Source: an uncultured virus (IMG/VR IMGVR_UViG_3300007539_010416) (lineage: Duplodnaviria > Heunggongvirae > Uroviricota > Caudoviricetes). From it: a stretch of DNA of 20,000 nucleotides. The stretch lies in the IMG/VR virus record IMGVR_UViG_3300007539_010416; one strand, 5' to 3'. The translations under genes and the position numbers were made by a program. The number at the start of each line of letters is the position of its first letter. Position 1 is the stretch's first letter. This document shows positions 2,204 through 18,729 of this stretch, piece after piece. The notes under the pieces are model-generated. The model saw nothing but the letters and a program-made list of their open reading frames with translations, did not search any database and was not told where the DNA came from.

Positions 2204-2230
2204 ACTAAATATCATGCTTAGGAGTAAAAT

Positions 2231-2461
2231 ATGAAATGCTTTGATTATCACAATAAGACAAAAAAGAGTTGTGAAAAAATTAACTGTAGATACTGGATAG
2301 AATGCAAAGATGCACAAATGTGTTGTATAAATTTATGCAAAAATAGTTCTAATCTTACATTAGAAGATGTAGGAAAAATATTTGGGGTTACAAGAATGAG
2401 AATATGTCAGATTGAAAAAGCTGCTATAAAGAAGCTTAACTCTGTAAAGAATAAAATTTAA
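2231..2461 (+). CDS. Stand-alone sigma70 region-4 HTH protein with Cys-rich N-terminus
   Basis: LTLEDVGKIFGVTRMRICQIEKAAIKKL matches sigma70 region 4.2 (TLEEVG..F.VTRERIRQIE.KAL.KL); 7 Cys and a His in the first 36 aa. Confidence 0.85.
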   Translation: MKCFDYHNKTKKSCEKINCRYWIECKDAQMCCINLCKNSSNLTLEDVGKIFGVTRMRICQIEKAAIKKLNSVKNKI

Positions 2462-2484
2462 AAATCTTTCTACGAAAATGAGGG

Positions 2485-2510
2485 AGCCCGGTGGATTTCT
2501 CCACCGGGCT
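2485..2510. terminator. GC-rich hairpin between convergent genes, probable bidirectional intrinsic terminator
   Basis: Perfect 11-bp stem AGCCCGGTGGA/TCCACCGGGCT with a 4-nt loop (GAAA on the minus strand); T-rich TTCTATT after it on +. Confidence 0.8.
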
Positions 2511-2540
2511 TTCTATTACTTAAAGACCATTATTATTTGT

Positions 2541-2723
2541 TTATTTATTTAATTCAATTGATTCTCTAACGAGATCGCTCGCTAACTTTTTAGCGTCTCT
2601 GAGTCCTCTTCTAACTCTTAGACCTGCTGACTTATTTCCACCTGAATGTTTTACTACATCATTTCTTAGAGACTCTACTAGAGTCAAAAGTTCTTCAAAT
2701 CTTTCAATTAAAGTTTCATTCAT
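2541..2723 (-). CDS. Histone H1-like (Hc1-family) nucleoid protein
   Basis: Signature GNKSAGLRVRRGL (family pattern GNK[AS]AG.R.RK) in a 60-aa helical hairpin; AAGGAG RBS. Confidence 0.8.
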   Translation of the reverse strand: MNETLIERFEELLTLVESLRNDVVKHSGGNKSAGLRVRRGLRDAKKLASDLVRESIELNK

Positions 2724-2733
2724 AATATTCTCC

Positions 2734-2982
2734 TTAGACTATGAGTTTTCTCTTTGATTTATTATTATTATCTTCTTCTTCATCATTGTTAAACTTTTCT
2801 ATAAAAATTTTCAATACAGTAGTTATATCTTTCATAGCTGTATTGCTTTCTAAAGTCATTGCAATATTAAACATGATATCAATTTTTTGATCTTCTGTTA
2901 TACCAAAATCAATTATTTTTTTTGCAATCTCTCTAGCTTCTTGTTTTCTTTTAGCTAGTTTTATACTTTTAATATCAGACAT
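2734..2982 (-). CDS. Hypothetical helical protein
   Basis: 82-aa ORF overlapping the upstream stop, co-oriented in the operon. Confidence 0.7.
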   Translation of the reverse strand: MSDIKSIKLAKRKQEAREIAKKIIDFGITEDQKIDIMFNIAMTLESNTAMKDITTVLKIFIEKFNNDEEEDNNNKSKRKLIV

Positions 2983-3451
2983 TTTTACCTACTAAGATTG
3001 TATTAATTTCTTTATTGAGTATTTTAATCTTATTTTCGCCGTCTATTTGTAAGATTTTAATATTTTCTATTTCACCCACAATAGATCTTTTAACAACTAT
3101 GGTCTCTCCCCACCTTTCATTTTCAATAATATCTAAAGCGTGTTCAAAATCTGCAATATCTGATCTATTTGTTGTCAAAACAGAATTAATTCTGTCAGGA
3201 AGCATCATCATAATATCTTCTATTGTCAATATTGAAGCTATGTCTTCTTTTCCTGGACGAAGTTCAGATTTACAAGCATCATAAACATAATGTAAAGATT
3301 CACAATTATTACATTTTGCTAGTTTTGGTACAATGTTATTATTTTCATCAAATTTTGAATATACTGGAAACTTATGATTAATTTTGTTTTCAGATTTATC
3401 AAATATCTTAAGAAAACAATGACATTCTATTAGATGCTTTATTCCTTGCAT
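2975..3451 (-). CDS. Hypothetical protein with probable Zn-binding N-terminal domain
   Basis: HLIECHC ... KCNNC..LH...DAC; packed into the operon with a 2-nt gap. Confidence 0.7.
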   Translation of the reverse strand: MQGIKHLIECHCFLKIFDKSENKINHKFPVYSKFDENNNIVPKLAKCNNCESLHYVYDACKSELRPGKEDIASILTIEDIMMMLPDRINSVLTTNRSDIADFEHALDIIENERWGETIVVKRSIVGEIENIKILQIDGENKIKILNKEINTILVGKNV

Positions 3452-3453
3452 TA

Positions 3454-3657
3454 TCAGTCAATTGTATTAATAATCTGATTCATTGAACGGTTGTAAGAAT
3501 CCTGGACTGAAGTTTCAACTAAGTTTACTAAACTTCTAAGCTGTTCATCATTCAAGTTGAAGTTATTTCTATTTTCAGCGATCTGACTCTGCAGACGTTC
3601 TATCATGAACCTAACAGTTTGTGTAACAGTTCCCATTACTTTTGCTTGATTTGCCAT
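3454..3657 (-). CDS. Hypothetical small helical protein
   Basis: Track start is GTG 3663; ATG 3657 preceded by AGGAG (3663-3667) is the more likely start. Confidence 0.65.
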   Translation of the reverse strand: MANQAKVMGTVTQTVRFMIERLQSQIAENRNNFNLNDEQLRSLVNLVETSVQDSYNRSMNQIINTID

Positions 3658-3659
3658 TT

Positions 3660-4910
3660 TCACTCCTTGCCTATTAGCATTTTATCTATATTATAGAATA
3701 TTTCTTTTGTTGTGTTAACTTTTTTTAAAACGTATTGATAAATCTCACAAGGTATCATAAGATTTCTTTTGTCAACTGTGATAAGATAATATGGTTTTTT
3801 AGAAGTATTTATCATTCTAAGAAGATAGTCTATCTCTCTGTTAAACTTTACGTCATTTTTAATTTGTTCAGGAAGATAAATTTTTAAAGACTTAGAATTC
3901 ATATTTTTAATTCTTGTTCTTATTATTTCTGTATTTGCATCAGGAGGAGATTCTTCTATTCTCTTTTCAAGATACTTAATATGTCCTTTTATTTCTTGAC
4001 TAGACGCTAAAGATTCTATACTAAATCCTTTCCTGTTGAAAGAAATACTTTTACCTATCTTAAGCTCTTTTCTCATTTCTTGAGAAATTGTCTGTCCTTT
4101 CATAGAAGAAATAATATCTGATTTATGTAAAAGTGCAATATCATTTAAGATATTAATTGTATCTTCACTTATAGACATTGACACAGGAAATATCTGAGTG
4201 ATTCTTTTTGCATTGTTCTGGATGATTACTTGCTTTACTTCGTCAGACATTCCGAAACAAAAAAGAACATGGGGCTCTTTGTTTTGAGCAGCAAAATGAA
4301 GCATATGGTGAATTTCACTAACAGACTCTATATAACCGTCGATAATAGCAAATCGATAATGCTTCATTTCTAAAGAATTTTTGGTTCCTAAAAATGAACA
4401 ATCATAGTCTACTTTGAAAAAGATGTCATCTTCTTTTTTGATTGTTATCCATTCATTATAAGAGTTTTCTAATTCTATTATTCTTTCTGTAGAAGAGTTT
4501 TCAACTATCCATCTAAATACATTTTTTGCATTTTCGTCTCTGCAGGTAGATATAAATTTATCGTACGTATTTTCTAAAAACAAATTTACTTTTTTATTCA
4601 TTAAAATTTGTTTTTCAAAAAACAAATTGAGAAAAGCTTCGCCTAGATAAGGATAAAGTTTCTCACAATTATCAAACTCTCGTTTTAAAATAGACTTAAG
4701 TTGGTAATCTGGCATGAATTCTTTTTTACTAAAGAATTCGTTAAGATAGTTGAGTGAAGAATTATCTACTATCTTTTTACTACTATAAATAGTTGAACTA
4801 TTTCTCTGATAGTTGTCGAAAGACTCTTTTTCTTCTTTTAAGAATCTTTCGACATGATTTCTATCAAATATCTCTATTTTATGAATCTCGCCACAAGTTG
4901 TTTGATGCAT
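3660..4910 (-). CDS. Degenerate GroEL/chaperonin-like protein (apical domain recognisable, no GDGTTT)
   Basis: LEMKHYRFAIIDGYIESVSEIHHMLHFAAQNKEPHVLFCFGMSDEV...ILNDIALLHKSDIISSMKG...EIKGHIKYLEKRIEE...EIIRTRIKNM aligns by eye with GroEL [46 protein letters not shown]...MLQDIATLTGGTVISEEIG...AIQGRVAQIRQQIEE...EKLQERVAKL. Confidence 0.75.
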   Translation of the reverse strand: MHQTTCGEIHKIEIFDRNHVERFLKEEKESFDNYQRNSSTIYSSKKIVDNSSLNYLNEFFSKKEFMPDYQLKSILKREFDNCEKLYPYLGEAFLNLFFEKQILMNKKVNLFLENTYDKFISTCRDENAKNVFRWIVENSSTERIIELENSYNEWITIKKEDDIFFKVDYDCSFLGTKNSLEMKHYRFAIIDGYIESVSEIHHMLHFAAQNKEPHVLFCFGMSDEVKQVIIQNNAKRITQIFPVSMSISEDTINILNDIALLHKSDIISSMKGQTISQEMRKELKIGKSISFNRKGFSIESLASSQEIKGHIKYLEKRIEESPPDANTEIIRTRIKNMNSKSLKIYLPEQIKNDVKFNREIDYLLRMINTSKKPYYLITVDKRNLMIPCEIYQYVLKKVNTTKEIFYNIDKMLIGKE

Positions 4911-6813
4911 ATGTTAAGATTTCCTCAGCAGAATGTTCATTATAACCATACTCATCAATTAGCGTTTGTACCATATCTGAGTGCTTCTTTTTCTGCTCAT
5001 CGTCTCTTGTCTTAGACTGTGTTACGATTCTTGCGATATCCTTAACTGAATTGATTAAGTATTGCTCAACTGCTTCTTTAAGCGGTCCGTAAGACTTGTA
5101 GTTAACCTTTTCACCACGACGGAGACGGCTAAACATGAAGGCAGTTACATCAGATCTAAATCCATCTCTAGCAGACCCTACGACTCCAATCATTTCTTCA
5201 ATGGACCGCATAAATCTTTCATCAGGTTCAGTTTCTTCTCTTGTGATCTTGTTCTTTACCTTAGACTTTGTAGTGAAAGCTTCAGCATTGTCCATGTAAG
5301 AATCAAATAAACTCTGTGCTTGCTCATCATAAGCTGTCACAAACGCCTTTGCGATTTCATTTTCAAGAATCTTGAGGTATTCTTCTCTGATCGTACTTTG
5401 AATAATCTCTAAGAATCGTTCTTTCTTGTCATTGTCAATAATCTGCTCATTGACTTGACGAATTAAAGAATCCATAACGTTAATGGGTGTAATCATTTGT
5501 GTATCTGAATCTGAAAGTGCAGCATCTAGTGACTTCATGATAAATCTTGTGGAAATACCTTCCATTCCTTCATGAACTGCCTCTGCTTTTAGATCCTTAA
5601 TGTCAACCTTTTTAACACGACCCTTTTCAATGATATTTTCACCGTTATAGATCTTCATCTTAGTAAGAAGATCACACTTGTTTGAAGGTGTTAAACGACT
5701 CATGACTGAGAACATTGAAGCTATCTTTATAGCATGAGGAGCGATATGTGCACCACGAAAGTCAGATCGATTAATCATTTTTTCGTAAATCTTCTGCTCT
5801 TGATCAAGTTCTAGAACATAAGGGACTTCAATCTTTAGAACACGGTCAAGAATAGCTTCGTTAGTGTGTTCTCCCTTGAACCGGTTCCACTCAGACTCGT
5901 TACAATGAGAAAGAATAACTCCGTCGAAGTAGATCATATCGTTCTTGCCAGGAGAAGGAACTCTCTTTTCCTGTGTCGCTGTCAACATGGTGTGCAAGAA
6001 TTCGATTTCGTTCTTGAATACCTCAACAAACTCAACAATTCCGCGGTTTCCAACATTAAAAGCTCCATTTAGTGACAAAACACGAGGATCGTCTTCTGAG
6101 TACTTATCAAGCTTAGAAATGTCTTCAGTTCCGACTAGAAGGCTTACATCTTGTGAGTTTGCATCCATTGGCGGAACAACCGAGATTCCGCGACGGCCGC
6201 GTTGTGAGAATGAGCTCTCAACAACAGGAAATTTCTCATATTCTCCGTTAAACTCTTCCATTAGTCTGTGACGACAAATTGGACAGAGATCACCTTCAAT
6301 ATGAACTCCAAGCATCTCTTCAAATTGTGGTCTGAGACTTCTTGGAAGTAAGTGAAGTGGTTCTTCTCTTATTGGGCAGCCCTCGAGGTGATAATGATTA
6401 TCTGCTTTTTCTAGGGCACGCTTAACAGAATCAATTAGAGCTGACTTACCTGCTCCGACTGGACCCATTAAGAGAAGAACCTGTCTGCTTTCTTCACCTT
6501 TGTGTGCAGCAGACTTTAAAAATCTTAAAAGCTTATTAATGACTGATTCCATTCCGTAGAATTCTGAAGAAAAATAGTTATATATTCTAAGTTTTTCTCC
6601 ATTAAAGATAGGCCTATAACCTTCATTATCAACATCAAGTGTTTCTACACCTTGATTTAGAATAGACTCATAAAGTCTTCTGTGTGCTAGTTTAATGATT
6701 CCTGGATCTTCATTAACTAGGTTTAGGTAGTCTATAAAAGTACCACTAAACTTTTCTGCTTTCTTTTCTTGTCTTTGACTTTTGATTATATCTAAGAAAT
6801 TTTTGCGTGCCAT
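4879..6813 (-). CDS. prkA: PrkA/YeaG-family AAA+ ATPase (annotated as serine protein kinase)
   Basis: 644 aa; AHRRLY, Walker A LMGPVGAGKS, GCPIREEPLHL, SQDVSLLVG, SEDDPR, GNRGIVEFVEVFK, NEAILDR, EGMEGISTRF; AAGGAGG RBS. Confidence 0.95.
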   Translation of the reverse strand: MARKNFLDIIKSQRQEKKAEKFSGTFIDYLNLVNEDPGIIKLAHRRLYESILNQGVETLDVDNEGYRPIFNGEKLRIYNYFSSEFYGMESVINKLLRFLKSAAHKGEESRQVLLLMGPVGAGKSALIDSVKRALEKADNHYHLEGCPIREEPLHLLPRSLRPQFEEMLGVHIEGDLCPICRHRLMEEFNGEYEKFPVVESSFSQRGRRGISVVPPMDANSQDVSLLVGTEDISKLDKYSEDDPRVLSLNGAFNVGNRGIVEFVEVFKNEIEFLHTMLTATQEKRVPSPGKNDMIYFDGVILSHCNESEWNRFKGEHTNEAILDRVLKIEVPYVLELDQEQKIYEKMINRSDFRGAHIAPHAIKIASMFSVMSRLTPSNKCDLLTKMKIYNGENIIEKGRVKKVDIKDLKAEAVHEGMEGISTRFIMKSLDAALSDSDTQMITPINVMDSLIRQVNEQIIDNDKKERFLEIIQSTIREEYLKILENEIAKAFVTAYDEQAQSLFDSYMDNAEAFTTKSKVKNKITREETEPDERFMRSIEEMIGVVGSARDGFRSDVTAFMFSRLRRGEKVNYKSYGPLKEAVEQYLINSVKDIARIVTQSKTRDDEQKKKHSDMVQTLIDEYGYNEHSAEEILTYASNNLWRDS

Positions 6814-6860
6814 ATAATCCTCCTTGCTCTTATCATAATATACTGCAGATCAATGTTTAA

Positions 6861-8180
6861 CTATATTTCCCAAACTTCGTCTTCCAAAATTGTAAACAGT
6901 CTAACATCGTCTTTCCATAGATCTTTAACATGATCAACAACTTTTTCAGCATGCTCTAAGTCTAGATCTCTTCCATCATACTCATGTTTAAGTATGAGAG
7001 ATCCATCTTTTTCAATTCTTTCAACATATATTTGAGGAATACTTCCTACACCAATGCTCTTTAGCATATCTTGCTTAATAACTTTCCAATCTTCATCATC
7101 GGCGACTTCTGATATTTGTATTTCTCCGCCTTTGTTCCTGACATAAGAAAATATATTTAGTTCTCTTATGTCTTCTTCTTCTAAGAATATTCTACATGCT
7201 GATACATCATCATGAATTTCTCTTACTTCAAAGCATGCTTCTAAGCCTAGCTCTCTTTCTATTTTCTGGAAAATGTAAAATCCGATATGATAGGGATTTA
7301 AACCTCCAATATGTGGTCTGACAACTGCATTATGAAGCTTAAGAAAAGGAATGTGAAATTTATCTTCTAAGTTTAGATCATGAAGTATCTTATAGTGCCA
7401 GAAGCTAGCCCAGCCCTCATTTAGAATTTTGGTCTTGATCTGAGGGATGAAGTATAGAGATTCTCTATGCATGATATCTAGGATATCAAGTTGCCAGTCT
7501 TTAAATCTGTTCTTACCGTATTCTTGGAAAAAAGCAAATAGGTCATAATCAGGTCTTAGTAATTTGTTTTCTAATTGACTTTGGTCCAGATTTATACCTA
7601 CATCTTTAAGCTTATTGTATCTTTCTATCTCGGATGCTTTTATTTCTTTTTTAGACTTTCTAGGAATACCGTATCTATTAGTCTGAAATGCAATGGCTTC
7701 TAGATTGTCAATAAATTTTTCTACTTTATCTATTCCTATCTCAGTATTTTCTACGTATCCTTGAATTCTCTTCTTAGCATTTCTCATTCTGGGCACTACG
7801 TTTTTTGGATCTGTGTCTTTAAAGCATCTATTATTTTTAAAGAAGTCACTATGACCTACGCAGTGTGCCATAATTAGAATCTGAAGAAATAGCTCATTCT
7901 GCCGCATTAGATAAGCGATACTTGGGTCGCTATTAATAATAAGTTCATAAGGGAGTCCAGAAGCACCTGCATTGTACATGAAATGTGTTCTTTCAAATGA
8001 CTTACCGTAAGACCAGTGATTAAAGTGAGAAGGCATGCCGTGATAAGACATGTGCCCTATCATCTCGTAATAGTCACATACTTCATAGTCAATAGGAAAC
8101 CAGTCTAGACCGTACCCTTTTGCTACTTCGCATATCTTATCGTCCCATTCTTTTAGTTGACTCAAAGACCAATCAGACAT
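6861..8180 (-). CDS. spoVR: SpoVR/YcgB-family protein
   Basis: GMPSHFNHWSYGK, LPYELIINSDPSIAYL, AHCVGHSDFFKNN, YFIPQIKTKILNEGWASFWH, LNPYHIGF. Start reassigned to ATG 8180 (GGAGGT at 8188-8193). Confidence 0.95.
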   Translation of the reverse strand: MSDWSLSQLKEWDDKICEVAKGYGLDWFPIDYEVCDYYEMIGHMSYHGMPSHFNHWSYGKSFERTHFMYNAGASGLPYELIINSDPSIAYLMRQNELFLQILIMAHCVGHSDFFKNNRCFKDTDPKNVVPRMRNAKKRIQGYVENTEIGIDKVEKFIDNLEAIAFQTNRYGIPRKSKKEIKASEIERYNKLKDVGINLDQSQLENKLLRPDYDLFAFFQEYGKNRFKDWQLDILDIMHRESLYFIPQIKTKILNEGWASFWHYKILHDLNLEDKFHIPFLKLHNAVVRPHIGGLNPYHIGFYIFQKIERELGLEACFEVREIHDDVSACRIFLEEEDIRELNIFSYVRNKGGEIQISEVADDEDWKVIKQDMLKSIGVGSIPQIYVERIEKDGSLILKHEYDGRDLDLEHAEKVVDHVKDLWKDDVRLFTILEDEVWEI

Positions 8181-9342
8181 TTGCTTTACCTCCAAACAAT
8201 TTTGTAAATTGGGGCCATATATCTTCTTTTTCTGTTATTTTAATTAATTTAAATTTATCACACTCAAGAGGTGTAAAGACTTCTGTCATTTCTTGTCCGT
8301 AGATATGATCTCCGGCTGGATTTACCTGAATATAAGCAGACATTTGCGAGAGACCAATTACTTTCTTCATTGCGTCTATTGCTTTAGGATTATCTTCACG
8401 CCAGTTTTCTCCATCACTGCAATGGAAACTGTAAATGTTCCAAGCACTGGGAGAATACCTCTTTTCAACAATTTCTAATTCTTTTGTTAGACCTGAAGAT
8501 ATGTAAGTTCCTCCGGTAGACGCCTTTTTAAAGAAATCATCTTCAGAGACTTCTTTTCCTTCTGTCGTATGTGATATAAAAACTAGATCAACAGTATCGT
8601 ATTTGTATCTGATAAACTGATAGAGTAAGAAAAAGAAAGATCTTGCTAAAAACTTTTTAGCTTTACTCATTGAACCAGACACATCCATGATAAAGAAAAT
8701 CACTGCGTTTGTGATGGGCTTCTTTTTTACATCGATGTGTTTGTATTTTAAATCATCGGCGTGAAATGGAAATCTTTCACCACTTTCCCGATCATATGTT
8801 CCGTTTTTCTCAGATTTCTTTTGTCTTCTAATTTTATTTTTAAGAGTTTCTTTCTTAGAAAGTCTAACTCTAATTCCTTGACTTCTATATCCTTTTCGCT
8901 TAATTCTTTCAGCGTATACTGAATCTGAGTGCTTTTTCTGCAAGTCTGGGAGATTGAGATCTTCAAATAAGTATTTGGCTAACTCATCTAAGGTTACTTC
9001 TACGTCGTAGTATTCTTCACCTTTTTCTTTGCTAGGTTCGCCTCCAGGTTGTCCAGCTTGCTGCTTGTCAGCTTTCTTTATAACCTGTCCTTTTTTAATA
9101 TCTTTTCCCTGAGCTGATCCTACACCTTTCGATCCACTTCCTTGCCCATAAACAAATTTATACTGCTTGATTCCTCTAACAGGAATTCTAATTTTCTTTT
9201 TGCCGTCTTGCCCAATAATAGATTCCTCGGCTACAATATCGTGAATTCCTTCCTTTATAGCTTTTTCTATTTTTTTCTTATGACGTGCTCTATCAGATGC
9301 TGATCTATCAGCTATGGTTTTGTGTGTTCTAAATACTGACAT
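8173..9342 (-). CDS. yeaH: YeaH/YhbH (DUF444) family protein with vWA/MIDAS domain
   Basis: DRARHKKKI, IRIPVRGIKQYKFVYG, LFEDLNLPDL, MIDAS FIMDVSGSM, GGTYISS, WNIYSFHCSDGENW. Confidence 0.93.
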   Translation of the reverse strand: MSVFRTHKTIADRSASDRARHKKKIEKAIKEGIHDIVAEESIIGQDGKKKIRIPVRGIKQYKFVYGQGSGSKGVGSAQGKDIKKGQVIKKADKQQAGQPGGEPSKEKGEEYYDVEVTLDELAKYLFEDLNLPDLQKKHSDSVYAERIKRKGYRSQGIRVRLSKKETLKNKIRRQKKSEKNGTYDRESGERFPFHADDLKYKHIDVKKKPITNAVIFFIMDVSGSMSKAKKFLARSFFFLLYQFIRYKYDTVDLVFISHTTEGKEVSEDDFFKKASTGGTYISSGLTKELEIVEKRYSPSAWNIYSFHCSDGENWREDNPKAIDAMKKVIGLSQMSAYIQVNPAGDHIYGQEMTEVFTPLECDKFKLIKITEKEDIWPQFTKLFGGKANV

Positions 9343-9409
9343 TTTAATATCTCTTGCATAATTATATCTACAGTTAGATATATATTAAATAGTTATTTAG
9401 AGAAGAATT

Positions 9410-10144
9410 ATGAGATATAGAGATACCTTAAAAGAACTTGATAGAGATTTACAAATTATAGAAGAAAAATATTCTATAGAAGAGAAGAAAAAGTCTAATA
9501 AAAATAAGGGAATGAGAAGTGTCAAGTATGGTGCTGATAACAAACCTGCAGTAACAAAGATGGATTTTCTCCCCGCAAAAGTTCTCAAAAAAATCGCAAA
9601 AGATAAAGAAGAAAATGTAAATGAAGAAGAAGATGATTTAAATGAGAAAAAGGGAAGAAACAAGAGACCAGGAGATCCGAAATACTACAAAGGAACCAGA
9701 CAATCAAACAAGTCTATGGAAAAAGAAATAAAAAAGTGTGCAAAAACTCCCAGACCAAAAAGCTGTTATGATTACTGGGATGCAGATAAAAAATATGATA
9801 AGTCAAAAAATGAGTCTTTAGAAGAATTTAAATCTCTAATATTAGAAGTTATAGAAACTGAACTTGAAGAAAGAAAGAAGCGTAAAAAGAAAAAATCTTC
9901 AAAGCTCTCAGCAAAGACTAGAGAAACTCTAAAGAAAAAAGCTAAAAATGCAAACATGCCTTTGGGTGCTTTAACTGGTGTATATCGAAAGGGTTTGGCT
10001 GCTTGGCTTACTGGGCACAGGCAGGGTGTCCCGCAGCATGCATGGGCCATGGCCCGTGTAAATTCTTTCATCCGAGGAGGCAAAACTAGATCAGTAGACA
10101 AGTCTGAGTGGAAGAAAGTTCAAAACTTTAGGAAGAAAAAGTGA
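9410..10144 (+). CDS. Lys-rich protein with C-terminal DUF5824-like viral domain; modules separated by Glu-rich linkers
   Basis: LKKKAK..MPLGAL..VYRKGLAAWLTGHRQGVPQHAWAMARVNSF resembles DUF5824 as recalled from viral proteins. Confidence 0.7.
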   Translation: MRYRDTLKELDRDLQIIEEKYSIEEKKKSNKNKGMRSVKYGADNKPAVTKMDFLPAKVLKKIAKDKEENVNEEEDDLNEKKGRNKRPGDPKYYKGTRQSNKSMEKEIKKCAKTPRPKSCYDYWDADKKYDKSKNESLEEFKSLILEVIETELEERKKRKKKKSSKLSAKTRETLKKKAKNANMPLGALTGVYRKGLAAWLTGHRQGVPQHAWAMARVNSFIRGGKTRSVDKSEWKKVQNFRKKK

Positions 10145-10431
10145 AAATAACACGTAGACAATTAAAACGTATCATTTTAGAAATGATGAATGAGTTGCAA
10201 GCTTCAGAAGAAGAAGTAGAAGCTGCAAAAAAAGAACTATCTGATGAAGGTGGAGCAGCTTCAAAAGAACAGGTGGCTCGAGCTGTAAGGAATGCTTCTA
10301 AAGAAGATACTGACTCTGCAGATGATTCTGCTGTCATTTCAGCTATAATGGCAAAAGACGAAGATATTAAAATTCATAAAGACGGCGATGTTATTGATCA
10401 GTCAGGCTTGTCAGAGTCTAAAAAAAAATAA
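10141..10431 (+). CDS. Acidic hypothetical protein with shared N-terminal leader; probable 5' part of a recoded gene
   Basis: GTGA start/stop overlap; MKITRRQLKRIILE leader; ends TCT AAA AAA AAA TAA. Confidence 0.8.
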   Translation: MKITRRQLKRIILEMMNELQASEEEVEAAKKELSDEGGAASKEQVARAVRNASKEDTDSADDSAVISAIMAKDEDIKIHKDGDVIDQSGLSESKKK

Positions 10432-10754
10432 TCGAAGCAGATCCTGCAAAAGGTACAGGTAAAAAACCAAAAGGCAGCGGGCGCAGACTTTATACAGATG
10501 AGAACCCAAAAGACACTGTTTCTGTAAAATTTAGAACAGCTTCAGATATTAGAAAAACTCTCTCTAAAAAGTCTTTTAAATCAAAGCCTCATAATAGACA
10601 GTCTCAAATTATTAATTTAATTCATCAACGTGTTAGAGCGGCTTATAAAAATGCTAAAGACCCAGATACTAAAAAAAGGCTCAAAAGAGCCTTAGATTAT
10701 GCTTTTGAGAGAAAAGAAGCTTCTAAGCGTAAGACTAAGAGGATGAAGAAGTAA
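10422..10754 (+). CDS. Unannotated 110-codon basic ORF without canonical start; -1 frame continuation of 10141..10431
   Basis: Read by hand: KKIIEADPAKGTGKKPKGSGRRLYTDENPKDTVSVKFRTASDIRKTLSKKSFKSKPHNRQSQIINLIHQRVRAAYKNAKDPDTKKRLKRALDYAFERKEASKRKTKRMKK*. Bounded by TAA 10419-21 and TAA 10752-54; fills an otherwise empty 300-nt gap. Confidence 0.8.
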   Translation, partial: KKIIEADPAKGTGKKPKGSGRRLYTDENPKDTVSVKFRTASDIRKTLSKKSFKSKPHNRQSQIINLIHQRVRAAYKNAKDPDTKKRLKRALDYAFERKEASKRKTKRMKK

Positions 10755-11703
10755 TTCTATCTCTGTAGCTGATAAGTGCTAGCTCTTTTGCTTTTGCTTC
10801 AATGACCACGTCAAAATCTTTCCCATAGTCATTGATAGTATCATAAATGTAGTCACTGTGAGCATTTGCTTTCTTATTACTACCTTCTTTTTCAGAAGCT
10901 GACTCTGAATAGTGGAAACAAGGTCTTACATCGCCCCAAGTTTCACATGCCATGGCATGACACTCTTCTTCAGACTCACCATCATTTCGAAATTTATGGT
11001 GACGATAGTCAAAGACAATTGGTACAGGAATTCGCTTGTAAATTCCATTATAAAGATCTGCAGTTGAAAAAAGACTTTCTTTGTCATCGTTTTCAACTGT
11101 AAGTCTTGTCTTTACGCTATCTGGTAGTCGATGAAAGTTTTCTACCCAGCGAGTCATTGCAGACTCACGATCTCCGTAAGAAGCTCCAATATGGATATTG
11201 ATCTTAGCCCAGTGACTCCGAGGCATACCCATCAAGTCCATAATCTTTCCATGAATAGCTAGATCAACAATTGTGTTCTGAACTACATGCTCTTTGGTAG
11301 AAGTCAGAATATTGAAAGGGCCAGGATGGAAAGAAAGACGAATTCCTTTCTCAATTGCATAGTCTCCAGCAGTTTTTAAATTATGACTTATTTTTTCAAA
11401 ATGGGGGAGATCTTCAAGCATATATTCAGATGCCCATGGGAATAGGCAGGATGTCATTCTGAATACACGAATGTTATGCCTATGGTTCCATTCAAGAATA
11501 GGAAGAAGATTCCCTGTATTCAATTCTGCCAGCTCTGAAGCATACTCTATGCCTTTTGCATCGAAAGTGCGGCGAATCATGGATCTATTGCAAGTAATTT
11601 TGTTCTTTTTGTCCTGCTGCAGTGTAAGATTAATACATGCATAGCCTAACTCAATTCCTTTCTTGTTTTCTGTAAAGTTTGTCATTTTGCTTTTTTCTCC
11701 CAT
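10735..11703 (-). CDS. uvsE: UV DNA damage endonuclease (UvsE/UvdE)
   Basis: LGYACIN, VFRMTSCLFPWAS, RLSFHPGPF, INIHIG, RLTVENDD, PIVFDYRHH, FHYSES, AHSDYI, IEAKAKE; start may be Met at 11685. Confidence 0.95.
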   Translation of the reverse strand: MGEKSKMTNFTENKKGIELGYACINLTLQQDKKNKITCNRSMIRRTFDAKGIEYASELAELNTGNLLPILEWNHRHNIRVFRMTSCLFPWASEYMLEDLPHFEKISHNLKTAGDYAIEKGIRLSFHPGPFNILTSTKEHVVQNTIVDLAIHGKIMDLMGMPRSHWAKINIHIGASYGDRESAMTRWVENFHRLPDSVKTRLTVENDDKESLFSTADLYNGIYKRIPVPIVFDYRHHKFRNDGESEEECHAMACETWGDVRPCFHYSESASEKEGSNKKANAHSDYIYDTINDYGKDFDVVIEAKAKELALISYRDRITSSSS

Positions 11704-11742
11704 ATTTACTATTGATAGAGTGTTTTATTTGCAGGAGACATT

Positions 11743-12531
11743 ATGAAATTATTAAAAAATATTATCCCTGGCTTGATTATTATAATAATCCTTATTTTAT
11801 TTTGCACTCAATTACAAAATAATAAAGAACAACTAAGTCATACTGTTCAATTTAATAAACTTTATCAAACTTCACATACTCCTTACCCACTTCAAAATTT
11901 TGTATATTTAGACACTTACATGTCAATAACCAGTCTCGAAGGAGAAGGTTCAGGACAAGTAATTAATTCTGCTTCAGGAATTGCTGTCAGAGGCGTAAGA
12001 GGTAAAGTATATGCAATGACTGCTGGACACTGGTGTAGTGTAGATCCAGAAGAATATATACCTACACTCTCAGTTATAAATATGCTTTATCCAAACTTCG
12101 AAATTAAAATGCAAAGAAGAGTAGCATTTTTTGGTAATTTTTACCCAGTCGAAGAAGTATATTCTGACTTGGAGAACGATGTCTGTGTAATAACTTTTAG
12201 ATCTCCTTATGCATACAAAGTTGACAACATTAAGCCTGCAAGAAACTATCCGGATATCGGTGAAAAGATTTATACTGCTTCAGCACCCTTAGGAATATAT
12301 TCTCATGAAATGAGACTTATTTTTGACGGATATTTTGGAGGTTGCAAAGAAGATTCAATCTACTGCTTCTATACAATTTCAGGTGTTGAGGGAAGTTCTG
12401 GCTCAGGTGTTTTAAACAGAAGAGGTGAACTGGTTTCAATCTTAGACGTATCTGTAGTTAATTTTCATGAAGTAACTGGAGGTGCAAGATTAGAAGTAAT
12501 AAAAAGAATGTATGACGAGTATATTAGATAA
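11743..12531 (+). CDS. Membrane-anchored/secreted trypsin-like (S1) serine protease
   Basis: N-terminal hydrophobic segment; triad motifs TAGHWC, ENDVC, GSSGSGV; AGGAG RBS. Confidence 0.85.
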   Translation: MKLLKNIIPGLIIIIILILFCTQLQNNKEQLSHTVQFNKLYQTSHTPYPLQNFVYLDTYMSITSLEGEGSGQVINSASGIAVRGVRGKVYAMTAGHWCSVDPEEYIPTLSVINMLYPNFEIKMQRRVAFFGNFYPVEEVYSDLENDVCVITFRSPYAYKVDNIKPARNYPDIGEKIYTASAPLGIYSHEMRLIFDGYFGGCKEDSIYCFYTISGVEGSSGSGVLNRRGELVSILDVSVVNFHEVTGGARLEVIKRMYDEYIR

Positions 12532-12947
12532 TGAAACTTTATATTGATAAAAATTTAGGATTAGATGAAAATAAGTCACGTCTTATGGCAGACTTTTGCT
12601 TATTTTGTGCAGATAATTTGCCTATAGAGGGAAATTTTTCTGTTTATATCGTCTCAGAAAGAGAGCCCTATCAAATTACAACGACAGCTGTTTATCAGAT
12701 GCAAAATCAGTGCTGTTACATTTATGCCAAAAACAGGGCGCTTGCTGATGTCATGAGATCGGTTGCACATGAAATGACACACATGATGCAAGATCAAATG
12801 GGTTTAATTAGAGGACCTATTAGAGACGCTGGTGGGTTTCATGAGGATCAAGCAAATTCCAAGGCTGGAGAGTTGATTAAACTTTTTGCAAAGAGCAAAG
12901 AGGGAAGAAGAGCTATTTACGAAAGTAAAAATTTTAAGCGTCGCTAG
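12531..12947 (+). CDS. Small zincin-like metallopeptidase
   Basis: RSVAHEMTHMMQ (HExxH) with downstream EDQAN third-ligand helix; TAATG coupling to the protease gene. Confidence 0.75.
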   Translation: MKLYIDKNLGLDENKSRLMADFCLFCADNLPIEGNFSVYIVSEREPYQITTTAVYQMQNQCCYIYAKNRALADVMRSVAHEMTHMMQDQMGLIRGPIRDAGGFHEDQANSKAGELIKLFAKSKEGRRAIYESKNFKRR

Positions 12948-13776
12948 ACTCTTCGCTATCATCTGCTGAAGCGACAGCATCTCTACTGCTATCTCTGGTA
13001 AACATTTCTCTAAACTGTTCTAACCTAGCCATGGCATGACCTCGTGCACGAGCAGCATTTTTCTTTCCTGAGACTTTATCAGCAGCCATATTTACACCTT
13101 CTTCGGGTGTTCTAGCATTACAAAGCTCTTCCCAAGTCCACACATTATTGTGAGTATCTTTCATATAGTGAACAACTACTTGTGCTGCATTCTCCGGCAC
13201 ATTAACAGCGTCAGGATTGCTACCATAGCCTGCTTTAGTATAATTGGCCTTACCAGTTAGCTGAATAAACCCTCGACCTCTATAATTCCATCCGTCATTT
13301 TGACAATTATTTCCTAGCCATCCGCCGTAGAGTGCATTGAAGAATTTTTCATTAGAAGATTTAAGTCTTGAGATTTGATCATCACTTAAGGTGCTAAATG
13401 GAGTTCCTGCATCAATATCTTCAACTTCACAATGAATTGTATTGTTTCGAAAAACTTGTTTAATTCTATCTAATGAAGTATTTGCATACCCAACTTCAGC
13501 TCTAGGGTTGAAGTTACACTCTTTTGCAATAGTTGCGCAAACACCTATTATTGAGTTTGTGTTAGTCATGCCTGCGTCTTGTAACGCTTTTACAACTATT
13601 TTGATATTTTCTGGCGGATAATTCCCTCTTACTTGTGTAACATCAAGATTAGACGCACTACTAGATGAACCTCTTCCACTACCGCTTTTTAAGCCAACAG
13701 TCTTTTTAAAAGCTTTGACTTCTCTAAAAATTGATTCTCTTATAATTTTTCTAATGAATTTTTCTTCAATAATCAT
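12934..13776 (-). CDS. GH19 chitinase/lysozyme-like peptidoglycan hydrolase with shared N-terminal leader
   Basis: ATIAKECNF..RAE catalytic Glu pair; DGWNYRGRGFIQLTGKANY signature. Confidence 0.88.
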   Translation of the reverse strand: MIIEEKFIRKIIRESIFREVKAFKKTVGLKSGSGRGSSSSASNLDVTQVRGNYPPENIKIVVKALQDAGMTNTNSIIGVCATIAKECNFNPRAEVGYANTSLDRIKQVFRNNTIHCEVEDIDAGTPFSTLSDDQISRLKSSNEKFFNALYGGWLGNNCQNDGWNYRGRGFIQLTGKANYTKAGYGSNPDAVNVPENAAQVVVHYMKDTHNNVWTWEELCNARTPEEGVNMAADKVSGKKNAARARGHAMARLEQFREMFTRDSSRDAVASADDSEESSDA

Positions 13777-13784
13777 TATTAACT

Positions 13785-15554
13785 CTAGTATCCGCCGGCA
13801 CCAATATCAACATTTACAATAATATATCTTTTGGGACCGCCCCGTCGAATATCAAAAGAACCTGAGTTTTTAGCGTAGTGTGCACTAGTTTCTGCAGATG
13901 GAAATTCTAGCCGGCTTAAAAGGCTCTTAATAGCTCTTTCTATCATTCTTGGTCTCTTAAATAATCCGCTTAATCTCTGGCTGGTAAAAAGCAAATCGAC
14001 ATCTTCAATCTTTGTCTTATTTTTATCAACTTGCATATAGAAAGTCATAGTCCCACCAGGGTGACCTTCTTGGTGAGTAGTTACGTTCATATTTCGCGTA
14101 ATGACTCCTGCGAATGCTCTGTCTGGGTCATTACCTCCAGGAAGTTTAAATCCATGGTCTTTGAATTTAGGTCCACCGTTATTCGCATTGGCAATAAGCC
14201 TAATTCCTATCTTTTCATCAGGAATTCTTTCAACTACTCTTGTTTTGCCTCCGCCGGTGTCGCCTGAAGCTCTATTCTGACCACTAGGCCTTCTTGTTAC
14301 TGAAGGCGGTGCCATATTTCCGTATTTAGCTTCACCGCAATATCCGTCCATAAGAAACGCCAGGCACCCTCTGGGTCCTTTTGTATAGCCAGGAAAATCT
14401 TTTACCAAGTAACTAGCCATGAGATTCCAACTGCCTACGCCGTCTTCAGCAGATCCCGTCGAAGCCCCGGGCCATGGACTTGATTCACTGTATCCTTTGT
14501 CTGACAAATATTTTCTATCCTTCAAGATGCGTTTGACAACTGCAAGCCAAGCTAACTGACATTGATCATTCCACAAGGTGCTATTTTCGTCAGCAATTTT
14601 TATACCTGCGAAGCCTGGCCCCATATTGACAAGGTGCATATTTAAAAGTTTTCTTATTTTTTGTACATACTCTCCGACGCTTCCACTTTGCAAAGGAGGC
14701 AAGTTTTCAAAGCAATTAGGATCTCCTGGAGTGGCTGCAGCAGCACCAGGATCTGTAGACCTGGTTGCGCTCGGTGTATCTCCTCCGGAAAGAGATTTTG
14801 CAATAGAAGCGGCTTTATTATAGTAATAATCAAAATCTTGAATCATATCGGGATATTCATCTGCAGGATAATTTTCTTGCATAAAATCATTGGGCGTTGT
14901 CGCGTTATCGACCCATAATTGAAATCCGGGTGAAACAATAAAAGGAGAGTATTTAAGATATTCTAAAGAAATAGGCTCTTGTTCCGGTGTTACTTCCTTC
15001 ACAACATCAGATTCGAAAAAGTTTTTTAATTGTGCCTTATCATTTTTAAAATCATCTACAGTGTAATTTTCCTCATCTAACTTAAAAAGAGGAAGTCCTT
15101 CAATGTAATTTTTAAGTTTCATATTAAAAATGTTAATATCTGACTGCTCATTAACATTTTTAATAGCCCATGCAAAATCGGTATACCAGTTTTGTCCATA
15201 AATTTCGATATAGATTTCAAAAACTTTACAATACTCTTGTAATGTGCTTATTTCACTTCTAAGGAGATCAATAATCTTATCATCTTCATCTCCTGAAAAT
15301 GCTACCCGCGGGTCCTGTTTTTTTCCTTCTGGCCCTATTAGATCATTAATTTGTATTGCAACATCCGTAAGTGTGCTTATATCTAATTGATCAGCAGCTG
15401 CTTGAAAAGCTCCAGACTTTCTTTCAAATTCTTGAGCAAGTGCAGCATATTCTTCAGGAGTGGGATCATTTGTATCTTCTAAAATCAATCTGCTTTTAAT
15501 TTCTAATAAGACTTTTTTTCTAATAATTTTTCTTATTTGAGATTCAATAGTCAT
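13785..15554 (-). CDS. Multidomain hypothetical protein with shared leader, possible annexin-like repeat and degenerate peptidoglycan-binding domain
   Basis: 589 aa; PPLQSGSVGEYVQKIRKLL resembles the start of PG_binding_1; low-complexity G/T/P/A linkers. Confidence 0.7.
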   Translation of the reverse strand: MTIESQIRKIIRKKVLLEIKSRLILEDTNDPTPEEYAALAQEFERKSGAFQAAADQLDISTLTDVAIQINDLIGPEGKKQDPRVAFSGDEDDKIIDLLRSEISTLQEYCKVFEIYIEIYGQNWYTDFAWAIKNVNEQSDINIFNMKLKNYIEGLPLFKLDEENYTVDDFKNDKAQLKNFFESDVVKEVTPEQEPISLEYLKYSPFIVSPGFQLWVDNATTPNDFMQENYPADEYPDMIQDFDYYYNKAASIAKSLSGGDTPSATRSTDPGAAAATPGDPNCFENLPPLQSGSVGEYVQKIRKLLNMHLVNMGPGFAGIKIADENSTLWNDQCQLAWLAVVKRILKDRKYLSDKGYSESSPWPGASTGSAEDGVGSWNLMASYLVKDFPGYTKGPRGCLAFLMDGYCGEAKYGNMAPPSVTRRPSGQNRASGDTGGGKTRVVERIPDEKIGIRLIANANNGGPKFKDHGFKLPGGNDPDRAFAGVITRNMNVTTHQEGHPGGTMTFYMQVDKNKTKIEDVDLLFTSQRLSGLFKRPRMIERAIKSLLSRLEFPSAETSAHYAKNSGSFDIRRGGPKRYIIVNVDIGAGGY

Positions 15555-15555
15555 T

Positions 15556-16422
15556 TTATCTCCTCGTCATTCTGCTGATTAAGTCATTTATTTCATCTCT
15601 GCTCATGCTCCGACTAACTTCTGCACCTAGTTGTGCAATGTCTTCAGGAGTAGCTTCTTGTCGAGCTAAGTCTATAATTTTCATCTTAAAATCTTCCCAG
15701 CTGCCACCTTTGCAGATAACGTCTGCAATAGGCGCTGCCATGGGTCTTAACATTTTTTCGAAGTCAATGTTTAAAGTTTCACGCGGGATACCCATTGCTA
15801 TTTGTGTGACCATGTTAGGATCCATTCTCTGACCAAACATTGATTCTGTGAAGCTATCAATAAAAGATGTCATAATTTGTCTATCAAAAATTTCTTCTTT
15901 CGCAGTTTCAGCAAAAGTATCCATCACCAAGTTTACAAGTTCTACACAGTCAGCTTCGGAATTATTTCCTCGCTGAAGTATTGCGCTCGTGATTAATTCA
16001 ATTCCTTTTGGATGACTAACAATTTTTGGAACAAAGTTTCTAATGGCTCTTCCGAAAGGCGAATCAGTTGTAACAGAAGAGGGAAGCCCAAGAGCTTGAG
16101 CAGTTGCGTTCAAGATAACACCTGTTAAAACTTCTCCTGCAAAATCTTTTGTAGCCGGTTCAAGATTTTCAACCCTATTTCCTAACCAATTCATTAAAGG
16201 TGCAGGTATCATATCTAAAAATTCTTCAGACCCTTCTGGCATTTCAAAACTGCTCATGTCAAATTCTCTGAGCAGCATCATCTCTTCTCTTTTTTCCATG
16301 TAACTCTCAAAAAAGAGAATTAATTCTTGAGCAGCTGCCTGTCTTTCACTGACCATGTTTCTTTTTTTGACCTTCTTAAGAATTTCTTCTTTGATGATCT
16401 TTCTCAAAGCTTCTTTTTTCAT
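15556..16422 (-). CDS. Helical hypothetical protein with shared N-terminal leader
   Basis: 288 aa; MKKEALRKIIKEE; 1-nt gap to the next gene. Confidence 0.75.
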   Translation of the reverse strand: MKKEALRKIIKEEILKKVKKRNMVSERQAAAQELILFFESYMEKREEMMLLREFDMSSFEMPEGSEEFLDMIPAPLMNWLGNRVENLEPATKDFAGEVLTGVILNATAQALGLPSSVTTDSPFGRAIRNFVPKIVSHPKGIELITSAILQRGNNSEADCVELVNLVMDTFAETAKEEIFDRQIMTSFIDSFTESMFGQRMDPNMVTQIAMGIPRETLNIDFEKMLRPMAAPIADVICKGGSWEDFKMKIIDLARQEATPEDIAQLGAEVSRSMSRDEINDLISRMTRR

Positions 16423-16438
16423 TTTGAATCCCTTTTAT

Positions 16439-16466
16439 AAATATCTATTTTTGTTGATAGATATTT
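16439..16466. repeat. Perfect 10-bp inverted repeat in an intergenic gap
   Basis: AAATATCTAT (16439-48), 8 nt, ATAGATATTT (16457-66). Confidence 0.7.
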
Positions 16467-16469
16467 GCA

Positions 16470-16910
16470 CTAATAATTAGACGTCTTCATAATTATATCG
16501 ATAATAGGCAATCTGACTCCCCAATTTTTGTGCTGATCAATCCCCATGTGATGTGCATAATGCCAAGGAATCCATTTTCTGCCCCACTCGATGTCTGTGT
16601 GAGACTTTCGGTGGACAAAATAATAGCTTAAAAGACAAAACACAAGTGTCGCATAAGCAATCGGAAAGAAAAATACCACAGGTAAGTGAACAACTGACAC
16701 CATTAAAAGGCTGTAAATTTCAAAACGAGAAGATAAAATTGACTTGTAAGACTCATCATGCATCTCATTTTTTCTAGATATTCTATGGTGTTTTCCAAAA
16801 TGATTCTTAAAGGCAAACTTAAATCTTCGATGGTCGTGAAGAAAGTGCTTGTGAGCAATGTATTCGAATATGTGACTATACAACCAGGCGAAAATTATTT
16901 GTAGTATCAT
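16470..16910 (-). CDS. Fatty-acid hydroxylase/sterol desaturase superfamily membrane di-metal enzyme (minimal size)
   Basis: His boxes EYIAHKHFLH, HFGKHH, YYFVHRKSH, WHYAHH, then NWGV; hydrophobic segments. Confidence 0.85.
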   Translation of the reverse strand: MILQIIFAWLYSHIFEYIAHKHFLHDHRRFKFAFKNHFGKHHRISRKNEMHDESYKSILSSRFEIYSLLMVSVVHLPVVFFFPIAYATLVFCLLSYYFVHRKSHTDIEWGRKWIPWHYAHHMGIDQHKNWGVRLPIIDIIMKTSNY

Positions 16911-16991
16911 TTTTTTTATTTCAGAAAAGTATTATGTGTTTGACTCCTATATTTAATTATACTGCAAAAGGACCTATTAGGGAGATTTTTA

Positions 16992-18404
16992 ATGAAAATA
17001 ACTAAAAAAGATCTGAGAAGATTGATAATGGAAAATGTGAATGCGCTTTTGGAGCAAGATAGCAGTTCAACAACTAGTTCAGAAGATGATGAAATTTCTG
17101 AAAATTTTTTAGAAGATATTCCTATCTTAGAAAATGGGTCTGAAGAAGCCATAACAGCAAATAGTGCAGGCAAAAGAATATGGGAGTTTAAAAGAGAACA
17201 AAATGATTTTCAGTTTGTACCTAGCCGGGAAGACGACTTACTAACAATAATGCCTAAGAGTATTGGTGATGATCCTGAAGACATTGATAATTTAGGTCTC
17301 GGCAGTCTTTTTGGAGTGATTGTGAGGGAAAATTCTTTATATGTCGAGAACTATGATCAAGTTAAAGCAGAATTCAATAGTGAAAATATTGCCAAATACT
17401 CTCTTTTTCTCAATAACACAGAAAGCTCTATACCGACATTCGAAAGCTTAAAAAGCAGATATGAAACTCAAAATGCTGACACTGTTGAACCTCAAAATGA
17501 TCAAAGCGAAACCCAGCCAGCTGATACCCCTGCCCAAACAAGCCAACCCAGAAGTTCATCCACCGCGAGAAGTACTGCTGCAAAAGAAAAAGTTAAAGCA
17601 ATACAAAAGATTATTGATCCTAATGCTACTAGAACACAGCCTGATGGCATATGGAGTACAGGAACAAATTTAGCTTGGAAAAGCTGGCTAGAAAAATCTC
17701 AAAGTGTGATTGCAAAACTCAAGTCAGAAATGTCAACACCAACTAATGAGACTTTTTACAAAAATGATCTAAGCAAACTTTTTGAAAGATTTTTAAAAGA
17801 AGATGAAACGGCCGAGCCTAGCGAACAAGGTCTTCCTTTAGAAACTTTCGGTTTATTTGTAAAAGATGCATCTAAAGCTGCAGAATATTTAGGATTTTCG
17901 CCAACCTTAACAGGTGTAAAGCAATTTGTAGACGCTGTTGAGGCTGAAAAAAGTCAAGATACAACTGCTCAAACAAGAGCATCAACAGCAGATGATGATA
18001 TGGCGGCATCTCCGTCCGGAGATGCGCCAGATTCAGAAGAAGTTTTCGATGTGAAAAACTTAAAACTTAAAATAGATAGATTCCAGAATAGACAGGGAGA
18101 AAGAATATCAGATCCTAACCGTTATACTGAAATCAATTTGAATGCAGATAACTTAAAACTTCCTACATCAATTAGAAGTGGGTCAAACAGCACCGAGCTA
18201 GAAAAGTTTAAAAATCTTAGACTCTCTAAAGAAAAAGATGCGATCTTTATTAACAACAAAATTAGAGGAAACGTATTCAGAAAGTTTAAACTCACCCCGG
18301 TCAAAGTAGTAGGTGAGTATGTTGTGATAGATAAACCAGCAGATGCCCTTGAAGAATCACTTTCTCACGGTGCATTGATTAGAAGAAGATACAGAAGATA
18401 CTAA
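16992..18404 (+). CDS. Acidic multidomain hypothetical protein with shared leader and degenerate peptidoglycan-binding domain
   Basis: MKITKKDLRRLIME; KVKAIQKII...DGIWSTGTNLAW; Arg/Tyr tail; GGGAG RBS. Confidence 0.75.
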   Translation: MKITKKDLRRLIMENVNALLEQDSSSTTSSEDDEISENFLEDIPILENGSEEAITANSAGKRIWEFKREQNDFQFVPSREDDLLTIMPKSIGDDPEDIDNLGLGSLFGVIVRENSLYVENYDQVKAEFNSENIAKYSLFLNNTESSIPTFESLKSRYETQNADTVEPQNDQSETQPADTPAQTSQPRSSSTARSTAAKEKVKAIQKIIDPNATRTQPDGIWSTGTNLAWKSWLEKSQSVIAKLKSEMSTPTNETFYKNDLSKLFERFLKEDETAEPSEQGLPLETFGLFVKDASKAAEYLGFSPTLTGVKQFVDAVEAEKSQDTTAQTRASTADDDMAASPSGDAPDSEEVFDVKNLKLKIDRFQNRQGERISDPNRYTEINLNADNLKLPTSIRSGSNSTELEKFKNLRLSKEKDAIFINNKIRGNVFRKFKLTPVKVVGEYVVIDKPADALEESLSHGALIRRRYRRY

Positions 18405-18405
18405 T

Positions 18406-18729
18406 TTATCTTCCCAGAATTTCAATCACATACATGAAGTCAGACTGAGGTCTGACTTCTTCTTTTTGGCGAGCTTTTGCGTCAAATGATCCTACTTGAT
18501 TAAAGTCAGCATCAAAAAACATGATCTTTAGAGGGAACTGTGTCTCTTCCATTGTGTAAGCATGACACACAGGTTCGTCGTATTTAAAGAGCATACCCTC
18601 ATTTCGGGGGATAAAAGGTATATTTGCTAATCCTTTTCTCCGCTTTTCAAAATCATCGGCGACATACAGTGTATATGTTCTACCGCCTATAGGAATATTT
18701 ACGGTCTTATAGTTGGGAAATAAGTGCAT
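18406..18729 (-). CDS. DUF192 family protein
   Basis: VADDFEKRRKGL, EGMLF, TMEETQFPLKIMFFD, YVIEI. Confidence 0.88.
   Translation of the reverse strand: MHLFPNYKTVNIPIGGRTYTLYVADDFEKRRKGLANIPFIPRNEGMLFKYDEPVCHAYTMEETQFPLKIMFFDADFNQVGSFDAKARQKEEVRPQSDFMYVIEILGR

Follow-up and report, generated by a model that had tools for sequence, protein, structure and literature searches.

How is a reading frame of 110 codons expressed when it opens inside a run of adenines at the end of another gene and offers no start codon of the usual kind? The question is raised by a locus in a stretch of 20,000 nucleotides from an uncultured tailed virus, the whole of which is called the window here. The ORF at 10141–10431 (+ strand) ends TCT-AAA-AAA-AAA-TAA; its nine A's (A9, 10420–10428, + strand) form a longer A/T run than any other in the 20 kb and include an in-frame A_AAA_AAA heptamer. 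The −1 frame is closed by a TAA at 10419–10421, opens within the A run and stays open for 110 codons on the + strand (10422–10751, stop at 10752–10754), with no ATG, GTG or TTG before 10743. One extra A, or a −1 shift, would join the two frames into a product whose computed length is 204 aa. The zero-frame stop (TAA, 10429–10431, + strand) is made by the ATA (Ile) codon of the −1 frame and the base that follows it. Two candidate prohead-protease sites on the + strand, both recognized as sequence motifs, lie close to the run: L-S-E in the zero frame (10408–10416) and I-I-E in the −1 frame (10428–10436).

An earlier note on this DNA had described these frames correctly and had proposed that programmed recoding yields a short and a long form of a head cargo protein. 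Comparison with relatives supports the recoding well, and neither of the results named as fatal to it, an assembly error in the run or an independent start of the downstream frame, was found. We consider A9 very probably a programmed recoding site of some kind, and present below the evidence for this, the alternatives, and a possible role for the site.

The gene content of the window (PhoH, PrkA, SpoVR, DUF444, DUF5824 and UvdE, by Pfam) looks like a portion of a large aquatic phage, and sequencing runs with window-like DNA come from fresh, lagoon and sea water. A DUF5824 gene (9410–10144, + strand, 244 aa; PF19141, E = 8.6e-12) has a stop that overlaps the start of ORF 10141 (GTGA). A gene for a UvdE UV endonuclease (10735–11703, − strand; PF03851, E = 3.5e-59) is convergent with the −1 ORF, and their 3′ ends overlap by 20 bases (10735–10754). 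A cluster of PhoH, PrkA (YeaG), SpoVR and DUF444 (YeaH) genes occupies 820–9342 on the − strand, with 59–88% identity in four related records; the nearest related record, G001, has no counterpart of the slip-site region. An ORF of 60 aa at 2541–2723 (− strand) encodes what we take to be a protein reminiscent of the histone H1-like Hc1 proteins.

Integrity of the A run

The earlier note had raised the possibility that A9 is an A10 misread in assembly. Contigs from four of the 21 listed sequencing runs were aligned to the window, and in those of three of the four runs, from three studies, A9 and the TAA (10420–10431) are crossed without a gap. The contig from run X1, possibly the source sample, covers 9908–10634 with no gaps and no differences; that from X4 (10136–10604) has no gaps at the site and five substitutions, every one of them outside the A run; and that from X5 (9900–10998) has no gaps at the site and 25 substitutions, whose positions are partly listed. 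No long contig across the site was listed for X2. All four are DNA runs; the one RNA run among the 21 shares a fraction of 0.05 of the sequence words. On the strength of the gap-free contigs of X1, X4 and X5, a homopolymer assembly error is rejected; a minority A10 allele is possible because contigs drop rare variants.

The codon at 10141 is GTG in the window and ATG in the X4 and X5 contigs, which supports a start at this position. Low-depth contigs of X2 and X4 carry a three-base insertion after 10383.

Products of the two frames

The short product (10141–10431, + strand, in the ORF list) has 96 aa and a pI of 4.9, and consists of a leader, an acidic domain and LSE-SKKK-stop. The leader, MKITRRQLKRIILE (10141–10182, + strand), ends in an [ILV]xE motif and is conserved in an alignment of the family (A1); it is a candidate capsid-targeting sequence. 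Leaders of this type, which end in ILE-14 in the window's protein, open seven of 273 long ORFs in four related records and the window, in unrelated genes. Further ORFs with similar [ILV]xE-ending leaders lie at 12934–19624 of the window (starts at 13776, 15554, 16422, 16992 and 19624), one of them with weak lysozyme/GH19 matches below the cut-off.

The acidic domain (10201–10407, + strand) is predicted to adopt a winged-helix-like fold (model pLDDT 74.6). Its best structural match is 2od5_A (Z 7.1, rmsd 3.3, 74 residues aligned) and the next are winged-helix domains (Z 5.4–6.8), which weakly suggests such a fold. No Pfam or PHROG family scored above the cut-off for this domain (16 and 8 proteins scanned), and the ORF gave a DUF1664 match that was sub-threshold only. 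A single-sequence scan of viral contigs with the upstream ORF returned 116 stretches, none of which was confirmed; with alignment A1 as query, relatives of the acidic protein were found in viral contigs, and the same alignment against GTDB genomes returned 325 stretches with none confirmed. Of 91 proteins of the acidic family, 10 end in E[SA]KKK and none is joined in frame to the basic module; the remaining members lack a Lys tail at their end or run in frame into other modules. In two contigs (L114:2508-2774 and L116:3001-3273) the acidic gene lacks the Lys tail and a UvdE-like convergent gene lies directly next to it; module and cassette appear to have been lost together there.

Behind IIE, the −1 frame encodes a basic module of 105 aa (pI 10.9) with the motif DP-x-x-GTGKKPKGS-x-RRLYTDENP followed by three to four helices. 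Its model (pLDDT 79.8) is a helical bundle preceded by the poorly ordered N-terminal motif. A fold search gave nothing clear (the best hit, at Z 8.3, is a helical bundle and not significant), and no Pfam or PHROG family was found for it among the 16 and 8 proteins scanned. BFVD matches contain the same module inside proteins of 947 and 971 aa, and ESM Atlas returned only unnamed viral clusters. With the module as tblastn query, the sole match in a cultured phage was in Pelagibacter phage HTVC033P (51% over residues 7–77); tblastn with the module and with the protein of L283 gave partial matches elsewhere in proteins, and no cultured phage carrying the cassette was found. Judged by its charge, the module most likely binds packaged DNA.

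Relatives of the module are common. In a pattern search of viral contigs one was encoded in 590 of 600 matches. Among the best 80 module loci three are cut off and 76 have an in-frame start; in these the module either stands by itself after a short leader or is joined to one of a wide variety of N-terminal parts. The sole start-less case among the 77 evaluable loci, L005, has an A9 break. Compared with start-less relatives, the window's copy gives a dN/dS of 0.03–0.12 at dS above 1.5. Between the loci L115 and L150, the initial 48 codons of the −1 frame contain no start, and pS is 0.71 and pN 0.06. These comparisons indicate that the start-less frame is under purifying selection.

The same break in orthologues and in unrelated genes

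The earlier note had proposed to check homologous loci for a conserved poly-A run and stop. Both are kept in the two orthologues of 60–61% protein identity, as TCA AAA AAA AAG TAA (A9) in L150 and as TCA AAA AAA AAA TAG (A10) in L115; in both, an extra module comes first in the −1 frame. The syntenic loci L005, L216 and L223 have no acidic gene, and there the DUF5824 gene itself has a LEE-SKKK tail, A9 and a −1 step into the module. An ExKKK tail is present in one of 37 DUF5824 homologues, from which we infer that the cassette travels with the downstream module. In L254 the module is reached from a third upstream gene, again through an A9 and −1 break, and three unrelated families, grouped by eye from their sequences, have the same design (L265/L390/L419, L294/L304/L348 and L344/L354/L403). 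In the L265 family, 18 of 20 pattern matches are of the L265 type, and all 18 have A9 and are out of frame.

The break takes the form xE-S-KKK on A9 or A10 throughout, and the offset is always −1. As in the window, the stop is overlapped by a GTA, ATA or CTA codon in L150, L115, the L265 family and others. A second [ILV]xE, which was not required in finding them, is present in all seven lineages with a stop within two codons (L115, L150, L265, L390, L294, L344 and L354). L316 departs from this with VTSE, a second site is missing from L254 and from the DUF5824 group, and L403 lacks an exact first [ILV]xE. The exact junction, searched as a DNA pattern, was found at 32 loci, none of them with the module, and was absent from the 30 longest blastn matches to window positions 9000–12000.

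At three loci (G002, L023 and L195) the run at the junction is an in-frame A10, as LRE-SKKK-DP or VDE-AKKK-DP, and the run therefore also changes at the DNA level over evolutionary time. Slippage at these three loci (in G002 at C1:136892-136901, − strand) would shorten a long default product, which is the reverse polarity.

Several further loci deserve mention. In the family of 400–470 aa proteins of L265–L284 (for example L283:1121-2660) the −1 extension is a Cys-rich tail of 36–41 codons after G-LSE, which by eye resembles metallothionein. In two contigs, L181 and L186, a different small protein, of the EPKKGTGKHPG type, lies in a start-less −1 frame after an A10 that follows a short ATG-started ORF. 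At L404:1319-1829 (− strand) an A10 with ESKKK-stop leads into a −1 frame of 70 codons; it is flanked by a gene that by eye is tail-tube-like and another that is tape-measure-like, and was dropped as a cassette family. The site has the look of a normal tail-chaperone frameshift, though its run has the length that polymerase slippage needs.

Start-less frames and the length of the run

Whether such frames follow A runs by chance was examined in a survey of the unique ends of ATG-started ORFs of at least 80 codons in 454 sequences (1.94 Mb), scored for a start-less −1 ORF of at least 40 codons, with two-Lys sites counted within the same sequences. A start-less −1 ORF followed 13 of 22 gene ends with at least nine A's, a figure that gives no prevalence because the loci were partly collected through A-run patterns; they are pattern-enriched and not independent, and L404 is one of the 13. 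None followed the 25 ends with A8 or the 52 ends with a shorter A_AAA_AAR heptamer, and 28 followed the 1868 other ends, with no motif common to those 28.

A second pattern, [hydrophobic]xE-TCA-Lys-Lys-Lys-stop with free Lys codons, did not demand an A run and matched at least 118 loci. Among the matches listed, those with at least nine A's behind an ORF of at least 80 codons had a −1 frame of 89–202 codons in seven of seven evaluable loci, from four families, with the first start 16–53 codons in (L316 and L378 are cut off); none of 11 listed loci with a broken A run had such a frame. Counted as groups among the matches listed, this is four of four versus none of eight (Fisher p = 0.002, or about 0.003 in a hand calculation that merges L392 with L395/L396). 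A scan that permitted A8 gave 14 loci with a long ORF upstream, L404 among them; every one of these had nine or ten A's, and the single A8 of 19 was a chance match.

Polymerase or ribosome

The earlier note had left transcriptional slippage and ribosomal frameshifting as equal routes. Recoding as such stands, but the evidence leans towards the polymerase, which we think is probably what slips rather than the ribosome. Most transcripts would then be faithful copies with nine A's, translated into the 96-aa protein that ends in ESKKK; on a fraction of transcripts RNA polymerase would slip and add one A, and ordinary translation of these would pass through SKKK-IIE into the basic module, giving 204 aa. 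Nine is a length at which bacterial polymerases slip efficiently (PMC5009743), and many genomes avoid A/T runs at this length (PMC1088944). Sequence properties expected of a slippage site are present: an A9 or A10 homopolymer, a conserved break, a selected frame behind it, and avoidance of such runs elsewhere. T4-like phages depend on the host polymerase.

Avoidance of runs was assessed in the same 273 long ORFs in which the leaders were counted. In-frame A_AAA_AAG was seen 59 times against 47 expected; AAA-AAA-AAA encodes one of 79 KKK triples, against 30.7 expected. It is because A_AAA_AAG is tolerated in ordinary genes and A9 avoided that polymerase slippage is favoured. In 338 kb the numbers of runs of length 7, 8, 9 and 10 are 222, 28, 5 and 1, a steep fall above seven, and five of the six runs of at least nine lie at cassette junctions, in records that were chosen for holding a site. 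The rarity of long runs could arise through slippage in replication instead of transcription. Several genes of record G008 contain A9 in frame, and 94 of 100 module loci with a nearby A9 have their own in-frame start, many of them M-KKK-DP; A9 is not always a recoding signal.

Programmed −1 ribosomal frameshifting, on A_AAA_AAA in the window and on A_AAA_AAG in most relatives, and aided by the stop adjacent on the 3′ side, would give the same products and the same likely role. It is the strongest alternative, although we regard it as unlikely; both routes may act together. An in-frame heptamer is present at every site, and the constant −1 offset is as expected of it. The last Lys is AAG in five families (L005, L150, L265, L294 and L344/L354), although AAG makes up 27% of Lys codons; with the adjacent stop, this is compatible with a ribosomal −1 shift on A_AAA_AAG, the most shift-prone motif in Escherichia coli (PMC5009743). 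Against this, no site has fewer than nine A's, as the A8 and shorter-heptamer gene ends attest (0 of 25 and 0 of 52), and the window has the weaker A_AAA_AAA. A_AAA_AAG itself is tolerated in ordinary genes, and in L115 and L150 it occurs in perfect form within an in-frame A8 a few codons past the site.

An internal Shine-Dalgarno sequence on the 5′ side, or a structure close by on the 3′ side, is the usual stimulator of a −1 ribosomal frameshift. The window has no Shine-Dalgarno-like word 5′ of the run and no hairpin 3′ of it (z +0.3). Among 16 runs that were folded, one had a Shine-Dalgarno-like word, 23 nt off, and no hairpin was conserved; those of L216 and L223 (z −2.9 and −2.8) begin about 22 nt away.

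Alternatives without recoding

In a third reading, which we consider very unlikely, the switch is made in the DNA: replication would convert A9 to A10 and back, turning the module off and on in sub-populations. Homopolymers are mutable, rare alleles would be hidden in contigs, and in-frame A10 junctions do exist (L241/G002, L023 and L195). However, the 18 contigs of the L265 family are uniformly A9 and out of frame, though the search pattern permitted in-frame matches, and not one of the 91 acidic-family proteins is fused in frame. The offset is also kept in all three bridging contigs of the window's phage, with the reservation that contigs drop rare alleles. Moreover, out-of-frame sites occur at nine and at ten A's, and the in-frame cases have other upstream genes.

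The downstream frame might instead be a separate gene with a non-AUG start, at the ATA (10428) or ATC (10431) that exist in the −1 frame, coupled to the overlapping stop. The overlap of ATA with TAA is like that of ATGA couplings, and other phages commonly encode the module as a gene of its own. In X5 a loose contig end, from another organism, joins at 10426 after letters ending ATG, and is perhaps such a stand-alone form in that organism. We nevertheless find this reading highly improbable, in that orthologues have no start codon at this position: L150 has GTA at the codon in question, and in L005, L216 and L223 the Lys run leads directly into the module with no ATN codon. Nor is there a Shine-Dalgarno-like word upstream, and the constraint to A9 or A10 would be left unexplained. 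A separate point, which counts against the recoding reading, is that in L150 and L115 the basic module itself could be made from an internal ATG.

Least credible is that the module is a recent pseudogene, left behind when the loss of one base at a mutational hot spot split a gene that had been fused: in-frame A10 junctions exist and Lys-rich junctions do produce A runs, but this reading is largely refuted by the low dN/dS and pN/pS of the start-less stretches, and several families have the break, always at the same offset.

A possible role in the phage head

The note's suggestion that the protein is head cargo draws on the motifs and on the gp21-type protease of a relative. T4 gp21 cuts after ITE and LTE, within the [ILV]xE motif class (PMC5694885), and T4 internal proteins are loaded by a short leader (PMC9958956). 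No head genes are present in the window. The relative G002, whose PrkA is 82% identical, has a gene for a PF03420 protease. Its major capsid protein contains LRE-A close to the N-terminus, and about 10 kb past the capsid gene comes the basic module, after LRE-SKKK. PF03420 scored above the cut-off in all five records searched, of which only G002 is shown to have the window's gene cluster.

As the shift often lies between two [ILV]xE motifs, the 204-aa form probably takes the basic module into the head. It is reasonably likely that both forms enter the prohead by means of the leader and that a gp21-type protease cuts after ILE-14, LSE-92 and IIE. Cleavage would drop the slip peptide and free the basic module, of which there would be fewer copies than of the acidic domain. 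Taken as a whole, recoding on A9 by the polymerase, co-loading and cleavage form what we judge a fairly probable account, and the best explanation of the locus.

We propose more tentatively, and with somewhat more doubt than confidence, that the junction is a portable dosing cassette of large aquatic T4-like phages, found behind at least six unrelated upstream genes and tuning the copy number of head cargo. It would consist of [ILV]xE, S, KKK encoded by a run of nine or ten A's, and a stop, followed in the −1 frame by a second [ILV]xE, the opening codon of which forms that stop. As the tail of any leader-tagged protein, it would cause a set fraction of molecules to bring an additional module into the head; there the prohead protease would cut on both sides and discard the slip peptide.

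Relation to known systems

Slippage on a run of this length is known from bacteria. In dnaX of Thermus thermophilus a nine-base homopolymer gives rise, by added A's, to a long form, so that one gene makes two forms (PMC5009743); dnaX, however, is a host replication gene with a single site of nine T/A, whereas here a recurring phage cassette has been read from sequence. In tssM1 of Citrobacter rodentium an A run directly precedes a premature stop and two lengths of protein are made, but the run is A11 in one secretion-system gene, where the ratio was shown to matter (PMC4256274). The A9/A10 cassette differs in its adjacent candidate protease sites and in its presence in several unrelated genes.

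Among phages, lambda G/GT and the capsid extensions of A2, T3 and T7 likewise add a −1 C-terminal extension to a late-type gene (PMC5009743). The site described here does not lie between major tail and tape-measure genes, its neighbours being DUF5824, DUF444, SpoVR, PrkA and UvdE, nor does it extend a capsid subunit, and its extension is probably cut off and freed. The earlier note placed the site outside the tail-chaperone context; recoding outside that context is not in itself new, given the capsid extensions of A2, T3 and T7 (PMC5009743).

The leader resembles, at the level of the motif, those of T4 IPII, IPIII and Alt, which are N-terminal, end in [ILV]xE and have ITE- or LTE-like sites (PMC9958956, PMC5694885), and the relatives have a PF03420 protease. 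The T4 accounts consulted in these two sources report no recoding, whereas here modules are chained and shuffled. In the way it would work the site also resembles Gag-Pol, in which a second protein enters the particle as part of a recoded fusion, at a lower ratio, and is later released by cleavage (PMC5009743). There is no homology between the two; Gag-Pol is made by a ribosomal, structure-stimulated shift, and here a small basic module is involved, whose packaging is deduced from motifs.

No description of the cassette was found in a literature search that was mostly of open-access text, without the supplements that might list frameshifts of single phages. The slip mechanism is known from dnaX and tssM1; what appears to be new is a portable cassette that travels together with a cargo module and often has a candidate protease site on either side.

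Signals of this kind are missed by gene callers in what is a widespread group of uncultured phages, and the window's module, being start-less, is absent from a standard ORF list. The site points to transcriptional slippage in phages whose genes are transcribed by the host polymerase. If the cassette reading is true, its 20–30 bases would reveal a simple rule, open to testing, by which these phages set how much of each protein is packed into the head, and the cassette would be a phage counterpart of Gag-Pol.
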